Positions 3,372 to 54,305 of a stretch of 54,305 nt of DNA are shown here, one piece after another; within the stretch, counting starts at the first letter, position 1; every line of letters starts with the position of its first letter. Source of the DNA: Vulcanimicrobiota bacterium (lineage in GTDB: Bacteria > Vulcanimicrobiota > Vulcanimicrobiia > Eremiobacterales > Eremiobacteraceae); NCBI GenBank assembly GCA_019237415.1, contig JAFAHD010000007.1:1-54305 (forward strand). Reading direction: 5' to 3'. The notes below the pieces were generated by a model. It saw only the letters and a list, made by a program, of their open reading frames with translations. It was not told where the DNA came from and made no database searches. The position numbers and the translations under genes were made by a program.

Positions 3372-4328
3372 CTAGTAGCGCCAGAGGTGGGCGTTCGCGG
3401 CGTCGGCGTGCGAGAGGCTCGCCGGGTGTGCGGCCGCCGCGGAGAACGGCGGGCAGGCGTTCTGCGGCTTGGGTGCGATTCCGAGTTGTGCCAACAACAG
3501 CTGGTTGTAGTAGCTCTGCGCGAAGATCTGATATCCTGCGGCATTCGGGTGGAACCCGTCGGCCGAGAAGTTCGCCGCGACGTACGATCTCGGGTCGCAG
3601 CGCAGGTCGACGACCGCCGCAACGCTCGTCCCAGCCATCGGATTGATGACCTGCGTGTCGAGCGCGATCGAGACCTCGGCGAGGAGCGCGCGCACGCCCG
3701 CGGGCTGCGTCGTTCCAACGGGGATCAATGAGAAATTCGGCAGGTTTGAGACCACGATGGTGACGCCAGGAGGGCTCGCGGCCTTGATTCCTTGCACAAG
3801 GGTGTTGTAGTCGGCGCCGAATTTCGCGATCTCCGCAGCGATGAACGGTTGCGGATTCCCGCCGCCCATCGCGATGCCGACCGCGCACGCGACGATCGCG
3901 TTGGTGTCGTTGCCGCCGGCGAAGATCGTCACGACGTTGGACTGCGCGTTCACGACCGGCAGTTCATTCGTGATGAAGTTGCCTGGCGCACCGAAGCACA
4001 GCGCGGTGTCGGCTTGGATGTCGGGACCGATGACGGCGCCCGAGATGCCAAGGTCGAACAGATTGACCTGCGCGCGCGGTCCAGTCAGCATGCCCGCCAA
4101 CACCGGCACGTACCCATTGCCGCCAGGACAGCTGGGCGGTGAAGGCATCGGCGGCACGCCAGCGGTCGGACACTGCACCGCGCCCACGCCGACGGCATCG
4201 CTCGCGCCGACCGCCGTGTACGTGCGAACCGCTGGGACTGGCAGCACGCTGTTCCCACTCGGCGATGTGCAGCCGAACAGCGTGGCGACGACCAGACTGA
4301 CGGCAAGTGCCGAACCGATCCGGCGCAT
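3372..4328 (-). CDS. SGNH/GDSL-family hydrolase lipoprotein
   Basis: ATG at 4328 is preceded by GAGGAG. MRRIGSALAVSLVVATLFGC is a lipobox. The SGNH blocks are present: GASDAVGVG, IFAGGNDTN, and DGFHPN near the C-terminus. Confidence 0.75.
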   Translation of the reverse strand: MRRIGSALAVSLVVATLFGCTSPSGNSVLPVPAVRTYTAVGASDAVGVGAVQCPTAGVPPMPSPPSCPGGNGYVPVLAGMLTGPRAQVNLFDLGISGAVIGPDIQADTALCFGAPGNFITNELPVVNAQSNVVTIFAGGNDTNAIVACAVGIAMGGGNPQPFIAAEIAKFGADYNTLVQGIKAASPPGVTIVVSNLPNFSLIPVGTTQPAGVRALLAEVSIALDTQVINPMAGTSVAAVVDLRCDPRSYVAANFSADGFHPNAAGYQIFAQSYYNQLLLAQLGIAPKPQNACPPFSAAAAHPASLSHADAANAHLWRY

Positions 4329-4399: not shown

Positions 4400-5428
4400 T
4401 TAAGAAACTGTTGCCACTTTTGGCGCGTCGACGAAGGCCTGGGCGCACGCGACGGGCGTGTCGGGCAGGATGCCATGGCCGAGGTTCAAGACGTGGCCGG
4501 CCGGTCCGGCAGCTTCAAGCGCTGCGAATGCGGCCTGCGCCACGCGCACCGGCGTGCTCAGCAGAATCGCCGGGTCGACGTTCCCTTGCAATGCAATGCT
4601 CGGGCCGATCCGAGCACGTGCTTCGCTCAGCGTGATGCGCCAGTCGACGCTGAGCACATCCGCGCTCGATCGAGCCATCAGCTCGAGCACGCCGGCGCAG
4701 CCGTTCACGTACAAAATCGCGGGCACGCCTGCGCTGCGGATCCGTTCGATGACGCGCGTATGGTACGGCAGTGCGAACTCTTCATATGCTGCCGGCTCGA
4801 GCTCGCCGGCCCACGTGTCGAATACCTGGATAGCCTGCGCGCCTGCTGCGATCTGCGCGGCCGCGTGTTCGGCGGTCGCAGAAGCCAGCTTGTCCAGCAG
4901 CGCGTGGCAGAGCTGCGGGTCAGAGTAGAGGAGCGACTTCGTGGAGGCGAAGTTCTTGGAACCTCCGCCTTCTATTGTATAGGCTGCCAGCGTGAACGGC
5001 GCGCCGGTGAAGCCGAGCAGCGCCGCCCGCCCGGCGAGTGCCCGCTTGCACAAGCGGATGGTCTCGGCAACGAACGGCATCGTCGAGGCCGGATCGGGCA
5101 CACGCAGTACGTCGACGTCGGCGCGGCTGCGCACGCTGCGCTCCAGTTGCGGACCGGAATCGCCGAATGAAATCGGTATGCCCATCGCTTCGACGGGGAT
5201 CAGGATGTCGGAAAATATGATGCATACGTCGACGCCGAAGCGCTCGACCGGCTGGAGCGAGACCTCCGCAGCAAGCTCCGGCGTCTTGCACAGCGTGAGA
5301 AAATCGACGCGTTCGCGAATCGCCCGGTACTCGGGGAGATACCTGCCCGCTTGGCGCATCATCCAAACCGGCGTTCGATCGACCGGCCGCCTCGCGCATG
5401 CTGCGAGAAACCGCTCCGGTGCGTCCAC
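4400..5428 (-). CDS. hemE: uroporphyrinogen decarboxylase
   Basis: GTG start. The sequence FLAACARRPVDRTPVWMMRQAGRYLPEYR is the canonical HemE N-terminus, and the length is 342 aa. Confidence 0.93.
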   Translation of the reverse strand: MDAPERFLAACARRPVDRTPVWMMRQAGRYLPEYRAIRERVDFLTLCKTPELAAEVSLQPVERFGVDVCIIFSDILIPVEAMGIPISFGDSGPQLERSVRSRADVDVLRVPDPASTMPFVAETIRLCKRALAGRAALLGFTGAPFTLAAYTIEGGGSKNFASTKSLLYSDPQLCHALLDKLASATAEHAAAQIAAGAQAIQVFDTWAGELEPAAYEEFALPYHTRVIERIRSAGVPAILYVNGCAGVLELMARSSADVLSVDWRITLSEARARIGPSIALQGNVDPAILLSTPVRVAQAAFAALEAAGPAGHVLNLGHGILPDTPVACAQAFVDAPKVATVS

Positions 5429-5430
5429 CT

Positions 5431-6669
5431 TTAGCTGAGGACGGGTTTGGGAGACTTCTCCTCGTCGGCTTTGATGCCGGCCGCTTCGCGCAACGTCTTA
5501 GCTAAGTCGACGCGTTCCCATGGCAGGTCGAGCTCGGGCCGGCCGAAGTGGCCGTAGGCCGATACTTGGCTGTAGATCGGGCGGCGCAGATCGAAACGCT
5601 CGATGATCGCGCCGGGGCGCAGGTCGATGAACCGCTGCACGAGCTCTGCGATGCGCGCCTCGTCGATGCGGCCCGTGCCGAAGCAATCGACGTAGACGGA
5701 CACCGGTTTGGCAACGCCGATCGCGTAGGCGATTTGAATCTCGCAGCGATCGGCGAGACCTGATGCGACGACGTTCTTCGCGGCGTACCGTGCGGCATAC
5801 GCCGCTGAACGGTCGACTTTCGTCGGATCCTTGCCGGAAAAGGCGCCGCCGCCGTGGCGCGCCATGCCCCCATACGTGTCCGCGATGATCTTGCGTCCGG
5901 TAAGCCCCGCATCGCTCAGCGGTCCGCCGATCACAAAGCGACCAGTCGGATTGATGAAGACCCTGGTGTTCTTATCGAGCAGGCGCGCGTCGATGGCCGC
6001 GTCGATGACATGTTCTTTGATGTCCGAGCGGATGCCATCGATCGGATGGCCGTCGACGTGTTGCGCTGAAACCACGATCGTATCGACTCTGACGGGCTCG
6101 AAGCCGTCGTACTCCACCGTGACTTGAGTCTTGCCGTCTGGCCCGAGAAAACCGATGACGCCTTTCTTCCGGACCTCAGCCAAGCGACGCGTGAGCCGGT
6201 GCGCGAGCACGATCGGCATCGGCATCAGCTCCGGCGTCTCGCGGCATGCAAAGCCGAACATCATGCCTTGGTCGCCGGCGCCGACTGACTCTGCGGCAGA
6301 CTTGGCTGCCGGACCGTCGCCCTTGACTTCGAGGGCTTTGTCCACGCCCAACGCGATATCCGCGGATTGCTCGTCGATGGAGATCGAAAGCCCGCACGTG
6401 TCGGCGTCAAAACCGAACTTGTTGCCGGTGTAGCCGATGTCGCGAACCGTCTTGCGCGCGATGCGCGGGATGTCGATATAGCACCCCGTCGTGATCTCGC
6501 CCGCAACGTGGACCTGGCCCGTGAGCACCATTGTCTCGCACGCGACGCGACCGAATGGATCCTGCGCGAGGATCGCGTCGAGCACCGCGTCGGAGATCGC
6601 GTCCGCGACCTTGTCGGGGTGCCCTTCGGTGACGCTTTCGGAGGTGAACAAGCGCTTGTGAGTTGCCAT
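5431..6669 (-). CDS. metK: S-adenosylmethionine synthetase
   Basis: [27 protein letters not shown]..., plus [12 protein letters not shown] and [16 protein letters not shown] motifs. The internal ATG at 6669 is preferred over the track start. Confidence 0.95.
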
Positions 6670-23436: not shown

Positions 23437-23738
23437 TGGGATGACCGGGACTCGAACCCGGACGCCCTTGCGGGCAACAGATTTTCGCGCCGCTATGGCT
23501 TTCGCCACCGTTCTCACGTTTTGCGGTCCGGACTGTGCCATGGCCATGGCGTCGATCACGCGTTAGGCCGCGCCCGTCCAGTCTCTACACCTTCCCCGTT
23601 GCCGGAGCTTGGCTCGGCGTTGTCACGTCCGGCGCCCGGACGACAGAGTTCGCCGACTTTGAGCGCATCCCGAGGGTGGTTTCCCGGCCCTCGGCTCCAA
23701 TTGAAGTCTGTTGTGTCTGCCGATTTCACCATCATCCC
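23437..23738 (-). tRNA. tRNA-Leu(UAA) gene interrupted by a group I intron (exons 23704-23738 and 23437-23485)
   Basis: The 5' exon is GGGATGATGGTGAAATCGGCAGACACAACAGACTT and the 3' exon is AAAATCTGTTGCCCGCAAGGGCGTCCGGGTTCGAGTCCCGGTCATCCCA. Joined, they give an 84-nt class II tRNA. Acceptor GGGATGA pairs with TCATCCC, anticodon stem ACAGA with TCTGT, and the loop is CUUAAAA (anticodon UAA). There is a long variable arm GCCC-GCAA-GGGC and T arm CCGGG-TTCGAGT-CCCGG. CCA is not encoded. Confidence 0.85.
23486..23703 (-). ncRNA. group I intron (IC3-like, 218 nt, no ORF) between U34 and A35 of tRNA-Leu(UAA)
   Basis: The 5' exon ends in U and the intron ends in G. P1 can form as CUUC/GGAG with U-G at the splice site. 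Core strings are CCGGGAAACCAC, GGGATGCGCTCAAAGTCGGCGAA, CAACGCCGAGCCAAGCTCCGG, GAAGGTGTAGAGACTGGACGG, CCTAACG, GTCC and GCGAAAGC. From memory these match the Azoarcus tRNA-Ile and Anabaena tRNA-Leu intron cores. Confidence 0.85.
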
Positions 23739-23779
23739 ACGATGGTGATACAGCCGTTTGTCGCGCTGCCGGTGAAACC

Positions 23780-24724
23780 CTAGCCGGCGAGACGTTCGCG
23801 CAGATAGCCGACCAGCAGGTCGGCTTCGCAGACGAAGAACGACGACGCTTGAGCATGTCGCGCGACTTCGTCGATAATGACCAAGCCCGCCGGAAAGATG
23901 TCAGCGCGCGATTCGGGTAATCCGTGCAAGCGCTTGCGTTCCGCCGTCGGCAAGGACCCGACGAGTTGCAGCAGATCGCCGAGATCGGCAAGCCGTATGT
24001 CGGCCACGCGCATGTCGGACGACCCGTAGCCGTGCAACACGCGCGCGGCTGTGTCCGCAGTGCCGCCGACGAACGCAAGCGCGCCACCGGAACCAGCCAA
24101 CGCGCCGGGCGCGAGCTGCTCGAGCGCGATCGGCGCCAACTCGAGGCGCACCGCCGTACGGCAGGCAGTGATCTCAGGTACGAGCGGCGGATCGTGTTTG
24201 AAGAATCGTTCTGTCATCCGAACCGCGCCGATTTGCAGCGACTGCACCCGCGCGTTGCGGCCGTCCAACCGGTCTTGAATCTCCCCGACCGCGATTTCCG
24301 TGCTTCCGCCGCCGACATCCACCACGGTCAACCAGCGGCGCGGCGTCTTGCCCGCGCTCGCGAGCGCCCACAGCGCGCCATCGAACGACGCACGCGCTTC
24401 TTCTTCTCCTGTGAGCACGCGCATGGTCGTGCCGGTGATCTGGTTGGCCCGCGCTTCGAAGTCTGCAGCATTCGACGCGTCGCGCAGCGCGCAGGTGCCG
24501 ATCACAAAGAGTTGGTCAGCTCGCCGGCCGAGCAGCGCGAACTCCGCCATCGCATCCAGCGTGCGCTCCATCGCCGCGGTCGACAGCGCACCCGAGGCGC
24601 CGGCGCCCTCGCCCAGCCGGGTCCCTCGAATGTCGTGGTGCTCGGCTCGCACGTCGCCGTTCTCGTAACGCGCGATCAGCAGCCGGCACGAGTTCGTCCC
24701 CGCGGAAATGATGGCCGCCCGCAC
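23780..24724 (-). CDS. ppx: exopolyphosphatase / guanosine pentaphosphate phosphohydrolase family (Ppx/GppA)
   Basis: GTG at 24724, 1 nt after the upstream stop, gives VRAAIISAGTNSCRLLIA, the ASKHA phosphate-1 motif. DVGGGSTE is also present. The upstream 59 codons of the track ORF are implausible. Confidence 0.85.
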   Translation of the reverse strand: MRAAIISAGTNSCRLLIARYENGDVRAEHHDIRGTRLGEGAGASGALSTAAMERTLDAMAEFALLGRRADQLFVIGTCALRDASNAADFEARANQITGTTMRVLTGEEEARASFDGALWALASAGKTPRRWLTVVDVGGGSTEIAVGEIQDRLDGRNARVQSLQIGAVRMTERFFKHDPPLVPEITACRTAVRLELAPIALEQLAPGALAGSGGALAFVGGTADTAARVLHGYGSSDMRVADIRLADLGDLLQLVGSLPTAERKRLHGLPESRADIFPAGLVIIDEVARHAQASSFFVCEADLLVGYLRERLAG

Positions 24725-53541: not shown

Positions 53542-53583
53542 GCGGGGCAGGTACGCTCTGGGCACTCGACGTACCTAGGAGAC

Positions 53584-54265
<682 letters not shown>

Positions 54266-54305
54266 CATAACCCGAAGGTCGGTGGTTCAAATCCATCCCC
54301 CGCAA

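Follow-up and report, generated by a model that had tools for sequence, protein, structure and literature searches.

An ORF-less IC3-type group I intron splits the tRNA-Leu(UAA) gene of a bacterium that is very probably a member of the Eremiobacterota

The window analysed here, a stretch of 54,305 nt with an average GC content of about 65%, contains a tRNA-Leu(UAA) gene which is interrupted within its anticodon by a compact group I intron. The original prediction, made from the letters of this DNA, regarded the insertion site as one that is rarely if ever reported outside cyanobacteria and plastids. One question then is whether the interrupted gene encodes a functional tRNA served by a working ribozyme, and another is how such an intron came to reside in a genome of this kind. 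We consider it highly likely that the gene encodes a functional tRNA-Leu(UAA) carrying an ORF-less, Azoarcus-like (IC3-type) self-splicing intron, which would belong to a widespread lineage of tRNA-Leu introns and occupy, within an Eremiobacterota clade, a conserved chromosomal position.

Intron-aware ARAGORN places the gene at window positions 23738-23437 on the minus strand, to which all coordinates of this locus refer unless marked otherwise, and splits it after U34 by an intron of 218 nt. The 5' exon (23738-23704; 35 nt; GGGATGATGGTGAAATCGGCAGACACAACAGACTT) ends with the anticodon nucleotide U34, the group I intron of IC3 type, which holds no ORF, extends over 23703-23486 with its terminal G (omega-G) at 23486, and the 3' exon (23485-23437; 49 nt; AAAATCTGTTGCCCGCAAGGGCGTCCGGGTTCGAGTCCCGGTCATCCCA) supplies A35 and A36, the long variable arm, the T arm, the acceptor strand and the discriminator A, the CCA end not being encoded. 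On joining the exons in silico, ARAGORN calls a class II tRNA-Leu(taa) of 84 nt, the expected exon-exon junction reading ...CAGACUU|AAAAUCUG..., and this junction cannot slide, because the last base is U in the exon but G in the intron. The class II tRNA-Leu(UAA), the U34/A35 site in the anticodon loop, the intron length and the coordinates had been predicted exactly, as both the spliced exons and the intron-aware call demonstrate, and all the sequence strings that had been quoted from the locus are present there.

It had also been predicted that gene callers would fail at such genes, and this was borne out (PMC8450103): default ARAGORN reported not one tRNA in all of the 54 kb, Rfam searched at gathering thresholds found no family in the whole 54-kb window, and mechanically derived ORFs run across the Leu locus (23521-23748 and 23535-23783 on the plus strand, 23623-24087 on the minus strand). 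Scans for promoters and terminators around the tRNA-Leu gene gave nothing usable. A weak CRISPR-DR28 match (20.3 bits, E=0.74) at 23805-23830 on the minus strand, a GC-rich hairpin in the 3' end of the Ppx gene, was taken as a chance match, there being no repeat array.

The intron can be arranged by hand into the full set of group I helices from P1 to P9, and the helices P1-P8 consist of standard pairs throughout. P1 (23695-23706) pairs the exon nucleotides CUU and the intron nucleotide C1 with GGAG across an AAUU loop, the hand structure confirming both the predicted CUUC/GGAG helix and, as U-1·G7, the predicted wobble at the 5' splice site. P2 (23670-23694) comprises 9 bp with a CC/A internal loop and is closed by the GAAA tetraloop L2 (23683-23680). 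The 5' strand of P3 (23661-23666) forms six standard pairs with the 3' strand (23570-23575), which enters the P3/P7 pseudoknot. Between them lies the P4-P5-P5a-P6-P6a domain (23590-23656), delimited by hand assignment together with the alignment to the covariance model R1 described below, and made up of P4 (23656-23651 with 23619-23614), P5/P5a (23647-23623) and P6/P6a (23612-23590, with a GCAA loop). The 5' strand of P7 (23579-23585), with its bulged A, has its partner at 23530-23535; by analogy with Azoarcus, we take the guanosine-binding pair to be G 23583 with C 23531. The P8 hairpin (23542-23569) contains a tetraloop-receptor-like internal loop, CCUAAC/CAUGG as against a family consensus of CCUAAG/UAUGG, and is followed by the J8/7 core strand AUGGCA (23536-23541). 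Variants of the P8 loop like that of the window occur in the relatives L101, L072 and L055. The P9 region (23487-23529) consists of P9.0 (23526-23523 with 23493-23490) and two hairpins, one with a GAGA loop (23518-23509) and the other, P9 proper (23508-23495), capped by the tetraloop L9 (23503-23500), which like L2 is a GNRA loop of sequence GAAA.

Free-energy folding of the intron by itself recovers P2, P4-P6, P8 and P9, at a single-sequence folding energy that is unexceptional for the GC content (z = -1.33). A consensus computed with RNAalifold was abandoned: it mispaired the exon with the 3' strand of P7 and introduced a spurious hairpin in J6/7-P7, because RNAalifold cannot represent a pseudoknot. 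By the features seen, the intron fits an Azoarcus-like IC3 architecture, the IC3 label itself resting on what we take to be established knowledge of tRNA introns of this kind.

To what extent this architecture is recognised depends on the model applied. The original prediction had proposed a search with the Rfam group I model RF00028 as a check, and this part failed: there was no match at E<=10 over 801 nt around the Leu gene, and the 302-nt gene alone scored 14.2 bits against a gathering score of 50. A lineage-specific model, R1, built on the 143-position core (P3-P8) of 45 related tRNA-Leu introns with the window excluded, recovered the intron at 23669-23528 on the minus strand with 118.4 bits (E=1.2e-26), which together with the full set of helices upholds the predicted group I identity, and a second core at 54086-54219 on the plus strand with 99.3 bits (E=4.1e-22). 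These are exactly the two matches of R1 in the window, both of full length and with no non-canonical pair flagged. At up to three mismatches, two copies of the core string GAAGGTGTAGAGACTGGACGG are present in the window, as against none in 100 shuffles. Applied to seven related loci, RF00028 passed L068 (58.8 bits), L005 and L009 and missed L001, L061, L016 and L043, Eremiobacterota and tRNA-Arg relatives being among those missed. The absence of a covariance-model hit, which had been suggested as grounds for rejecting the intron, would therefore misfire: the failure of RF00028 refutes nothing, because proven relatives are missed as well, and the low score is a limit of sensitivity and not evidence against group I membership. 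In line with this, Nawrocki et al. (PMC6125680) note that the diversity of group I introns is beyond the reach of any one alignment of the RF00028 type.

The structure was examined in an alignment (MAFFT) of 45 compact tRNA-Leu introns obtained from a genome scan, with the window left out, the canonical structure being written by hand, P1 and the P3/P7 pseudoknot included, and scored by counting pairs. In the 45 relatives this structure is 95.2% paired as against 31-46% for slid controls, and compensatory changes are found at 43 of its 60 pairs, values reached by none of 500 shuffles. The splice-site U·G is kept in 45/45 relatives, all 9 pairs of P2 show compensatory changes, P3 is 100% paired with 4 covarying pairs, P7 is likewise 100% paired, its fifth pair changing from A-U to G-C in the Eremiobacterota clade, and the helices of the P9 region covary. 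Wherever relatives could be parsed cleanly (52/52), the intron ends in G and the preceding exon in CTT. The window itself, aligned by the model with 100 other introns, matches 55 of the 56 columns conserved at 95% or more, and relative to its nearest relatives its paired positions show 3-8 double changes that keep the pair and 0-2 that break it, all 27 modelled pairs being standard. This combination of conservation and compensatory change argues for a working ribozyme.

Such a ribozyme would most likely remove the intron from the tRNA-Leu precursor in two steps. In the first, free guanosine bound in P7 would attack the phosphate after the last U of the exon, held in place by the U·G wobble of P1; in the second, the freed 3'-OH of the exon would attack after the terminal G (23486), so joining the exons and yielding a mature anticodon loop of sequence CUUAAAA. 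The compact fold is probably stabilised by the P2 and P9 loops, both GAAA, which would dock into P8 and P5. While the anatomy, the family membership, the covariation, the placement of the host and the varying presence of the intron are read directly from the data, catalysis, tertiary docking and splicing in vivo are in this account what we infer from the sequence.

An alternative, which we regard as improbable, sees in the intron a relic in decay and in the tRNA gene a pseudogene, with a ribozyme that is dead or dependent on a helper protein and with UUA/UUG codons read by another gene. The sole mismatch among the 56 conserved columns lies at 23540 (minus strand), the second nucleotide of J8/7, where the window has U and 99/100 of the other introns have A, and this change is, with the departure of the P8 receptor loop from consensus, the sole hint against a working ribozyme; yet one other sampled intron also has U at this position, and the remaining 55 conserved core positions are retained. 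The very low RF00028 score, which might be read in the same sense, is met by clearly conserved relatives that this model likewise misses. It could further be argued that at 65% GC the UUA codons should be rare and selection on the gene relaxed, but the exons of the tRNA-Leu are flawless, the helices are all intact and the differences from relatives are compensatory.

If the gene is taken to be functional, with its intron a working self-splicing one, the next question is how unusual its position is. GTDB representative genomes were scanned with a degenerate core pattern, GGTGTAGAG, which returned at least 120 loci; the scan is biased by its pattern, and its figures should be read as minima, not as frequencies. 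Among the matches listed, intron-aware ARAGORN identified at least 54 tRNA-Leu(UAA) genes with the intron at U34/A35, at least 15 genes of Met/fMet/Ile2 type with a CAU anticodon, at least 7 tRNA-Arg(CCU) genes and fewer of other isotypes, the junction ...GACTT | intron...G | AAAATC being found in 52 of the 54 Leu loci. Assigned by record title, the Leu-intron hosts among the matches listed include at least 21 Alphaproteobacteria, at least 10 Acidobacteriota, at least 5 Eremiobacterota, at least 4 Bacteroidota, at least 3 each of Betaproteobacteria, Gammaproteobacteria and unclassified Proteobacteria, at least 2 Chloroflexota, and at least 1 each of Verrucomicrobiota, Bdellovibrionota and Binatota. 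The expectation that the site is rare outside cyanobacteria has accordingly to be abandoned: these at least 54 introns span at least 10 non-cyanobacterial phyla or classes, with cultured hosts, known from finished or draft genomes, in Bradyrhizobium, Sphingomonas, Burkholderia, Paraburkholderia and Carnimonas. A tRNA-Leu(UAA) intron is, moreover, reported to have been described by Vepritskiy and colleagues (J Bacteriol, 2002) in a deep-subsurface gamma-proteobacterium. Among the matches listed for GGTGTAGAG there was no cyanobacterial tRNA-Leu intron, the cyanobacterial ones being fMet introns only; the cyanobacterial Leu introns were probably missed by the scan through a difference of sequence in the core of the pattern. 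In one locus, L017, two IC3-type intron cores lie about 500 nt apart, at 5593-5712 (plus strand) and 6068-6216 (minus strand), one of them in a tRNA-Leu(UAA) gene.

Within this family the window intron has well-defined relatives. Among the matches listed, the closest pre-tRNAs (L101, L061, L001, L070 and L110) are about 78% identical over the whole gene and come from metagenome-assembled genomes (MAGs) labelled Eremiobacterota, Eremiobacteria, Elarobacter or Vulcanimicrobiota, and the nearest introns, at 78-83% identity, likewise sit in tRNA-Leu genes of MAGs from Eremiobacterota or Vulcanimicrobiota. The window and its Eremiobacterota relatives have distinctive exons in common, with a GGGATGA (GGGAUGA) acceptor stem. 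About 7 kb adjoining the gene is collinear with L061, the tRNA-Leu gene being followed by Ppx/GppA and then by three more blocks at about 50-63% amino acid identity, and L110, L070 and L001 show the same collinearity with the window. An exact-match look-up of the neighbouring Ppx protein found no record. A position of the genome inside the Cyanobacteria had been named in the original prediction as grounds for rejection, but the relatives and the collinear block of about 7 kb place it with the Eremiobacterota; the sequence carries no sign of a cyanobacterium, and the host is very probably a member of the Eremiobacterota, with the proviso that MAG labels may be imperfect.

A neighbour-joining tree of 102 introns over 125 core columns likewise sets the window Leu intron inside an Eremiobacterota Leu clade, the sister of which is formed by betaproteobacterial introns in tRNAs with a CAU anticodon (L005, L047, L085, L093, L106, L111), possibly of the type found in Azoarcus tRNA-Ile(CAU), which would agree with the Azoarcus-like strings noted in the original prediction. 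For 31 of 51 Leu introns the nearest neighbour belongs to the same phylum or class, as against about 11 expected, a value reached in 0/2000 label shuffles; there also exist pairs of Leu introns from different phyla with 90-93% core identity. Judged by the sequences, the Leu introns would seem to have been in part inherited vertically and in part transferred, unless core evolution is simply too slow for the distinction to be made. Two loci with Eremiobacterota-type Leu exons and introns, L006 (labelled Opitutus) and L072 (labelled Candidatus Acidoferrum), are nested in the Eremiobacterota clade, and these could be mis-binned contigs, that of L006 being 1.8 kb long, or cases of whole-gene transfer. 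Introns of other tRNAs are found inside or beside Leu clades at twelve loci (L003, L007, L028, L049, L050, L060, L063, L090, L094, L105, L107, L114), a hint that introns may have transposed from one tRNA gene to another, the ARAGORN isotypes of these 12 loci, His(atg), Phe(gaa), Ser and Ile(tat), being unreliable.

The survey of related genomes at this site, which had been recommended at the outset, revealed both intron-bearing and intron-less loci. A metagenome scan for intron-less tRNA-Leu genes of Eremiobacterota type gave 120 matches, mostly unrelated, of which 8 passed the filter of full exon identity (L202, L150, L183, L127, L198, L161, L165 and L166). L202 is collinear with L070 at 88-91% nucleotide identity and lacks, at 3801-3802, exactly the 245-nt intron of L070 (4587-4831), the junction being otherwise unchanged, and the intron-less L127 shares synteny with both the window and the Eremiobacterota MAGs. 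The presence of the Leu intron thus varies among close relatives through precise loss or gain. For an ORF-less intron such as that of the window, mobility would presumably require reverse splicing or an endonuclease acting in trans. Directly downstream of the tRNA-Leu gene of L070, a stretch of 746 nt (4881-5626) is also absent from L202 and encodes an ORF of about 200 aa with a signal-peptide-like N-terminus.

These observations bear on a second alternative, that the window Leu intron came in recently through lateral transfer, from a cyanobacterium, say, or by homing, and was not inherited within the host lineage. The precise presence and absence in L070 and L202, the near-identical cores found across phyla in the wider family and the occurrence of a mobile, endonuclease-bearing intron in the same window could all be cited in its favour; but the intron nests with introns of the same phylum, in the same tRNA, between the same distinctive exons and beside the same neighbouring genes, its divergence (about 78-83% identity) is in line with the roughly 50-63% amino acid identity of the flanking genes, and it carries no ORF. 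Moreover, no cyanobacterial Leu intron appears among the neighbours listed, with the reservation that the scan pattern may exclude them. On balance we hold a recent acquisition to be very unlikely, even less likely than decay.

The second intron of the window interrupts a tRNA-fMet gene on the plus strand, and the two genes, the sole tRNA genes detected in the 54,305 nt, both carry group I introns. The presence of a second intron-bearing tRNA gene had been correctly predicted, as shown by the R1 match and by ARAGORN, which calls the spliced exons tRNA-Met(cat); it had, however, been placed near 54040, and its intron is not compact but comprises 649 nt and encloses an endonuclease ORF. The 5' exon (53583-53616; 34 nt; CGCGGGGTGGAGCAGTCCGGTAGCTCGTCGGGCT) ends at U33, the group I intron (53617-54265, its length as given by ARAGORN) has its ribozyme core at 54086-54219, and the 3' exon (54266-54305) ends exactly at the edge of the window. 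The ORF (53636-54166; 176 aa) is of the PD-(D/E)XK homing-endonuclease type (Pfam PF11645; E=3.4e-50, 170 bits), and its 3' end overlaps the ribozyme core. ARAGORN with an intron limit of 600 nt did not find the fMet gene, and in intron mode it miscalled the gene as tRNA-Ser(cga), because the junction was shifted. In the neighbour-joining tree this intron is grouped apart from the Leu intron, in an fMet clade that includes cyanobacterial members. A MAG labelled 'uncultured proteobacterium' (L069:7539-7918) has an fMet intron 91% identical to that of the window (53573-54305), with 98% identity in the 5' exon, and lacks about 354 nt holding most of the endonuclease ORF; the flanks of L069 showed no synteny with the window. 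The comparison suggests gain or loss of the ORF and possibly lateral spread.

That the Leu intron might be a recent intragenomic copy of this fMet intron 30 kb away, as strings common to both (GAAGGTGTAGAGACT and GAGCCAAGCT) could be taken to indicate, is refuted, since the two cores are 60% identical and fall into different clades, each with introns of other organisms in the same host tRNA, and the common strings are invariant across the whole family; the strings themselves had been rightly noted, while the special link drawn from them dissolves into family-wide conservation.

The reading that remains, of a functional gene with an inherited and most likely self-splicing intron, is for the most part familiar. 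The window Leu intron is of a well-known and widely distributed kind and leaves the knowledge of group I introns unchanged, and the wide phyletic spread and the precise presence and absence make a modest addition to the debate on the age and mobility of Leu introns. It might be proposed on this basis that the tRNA-Leu(UAA) intron is old and largely vertical in many bacterial phyla, has been lost precisely and repeatedly, and is no speciality of cyanobacteria, a generalisation to which we attach rather little credence at present. Were it true, the Eremiobacterota, which keep both states in close relatives, would provide a natural system for studying how an ORF-less intron is lost or regained. 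Of more immediate consequence is annotation: a genome such as this would be reported as devoid of both tRNA-Leu(UAA) and initiator tRNA, because standard tRNA callers see neither of the intron-bearing genes, and whole intron lineages escape the generic Rfam group I model but are readily picked up by a lineage-specific one. The authors of tRNAscan-SE 2.0 describe the same caller problem for fMet and Ile2 (PMC8450103), and the present counts suggest that Leu(UAA) is affected no less often.

The closest comparison is with the other non-cyanobacterial tRNA-Leu introns, such as those of Bradyrhizobium sp. RDT10, Sphingomonas yantingensis, Burkholderia spp. and Carnimonas nigrificans, which have the same host tRNA and U34/A35 site as the window intron, the same exon context CUU|...G|AAAAUC, the helices P1-P9 and the invariant core strings. 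Unlike these, the Eremiobacterota subclade that includes the window has GGGAUGA acceptor exons, a P3 of GCGCUC/GGGCGC, a P4 of UCGGCG/CGCCGA and a G-C in place of A-U as the fifth pair of P7.

The intron of the tRNA-Ile(CAU) gene of Azoarcus sp. BH72 is the crystallised IC3 ribozyme. The window intron resembles it in compactness, in the GAAA loops L2 and L9, in the CC/A loop of P2 and in the CAACGCCGAGCC strand of P4, has in P8 a receptor-like loop off the family consensus where the Azoarcus intron has a receptor, and differs from it in host tRNA and insertion site and in a longer P9 region with an extra GAGA-capped hairpin. The core of the window Leu intron is about 66-69% identical to those of the betaproteobacterial L047 and L085.

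With the cyanobacterial and plastid tRNA-Leu(UAA) intron, as far as it is described through the literature cited in PMC3984707 (Kuhsel et al. 1990; Xu et al. 1990; Zaug et al. 1993; Paquin et al. 1997), the window intron has in common the gene, the site in the anticodon loop, the lack of an ORF and self-splicing, the last being a prediction in the case of the window; the host, in contrast, is non-cyanobacterial. Introns in tRNA-fMet are known from Gloeobacter and Synechocystis (PMC8450103), and that of Synechocystis PCC 6803 is associated, according to its citation in PMC3984707, with an endonuclease whose specificity is for the region of the anticodon (Bonocora & Shub 2001). The window fMet intron resembles the latter in its host tRNA and its PD-(D/E)XK-type ORF (PF11645) and clusters with cyanobacterial fMet introns; unlike it, the window fMet intron resides in a non-cyanobacterial genome and has an ORF-less version, 91% identical, in L069.
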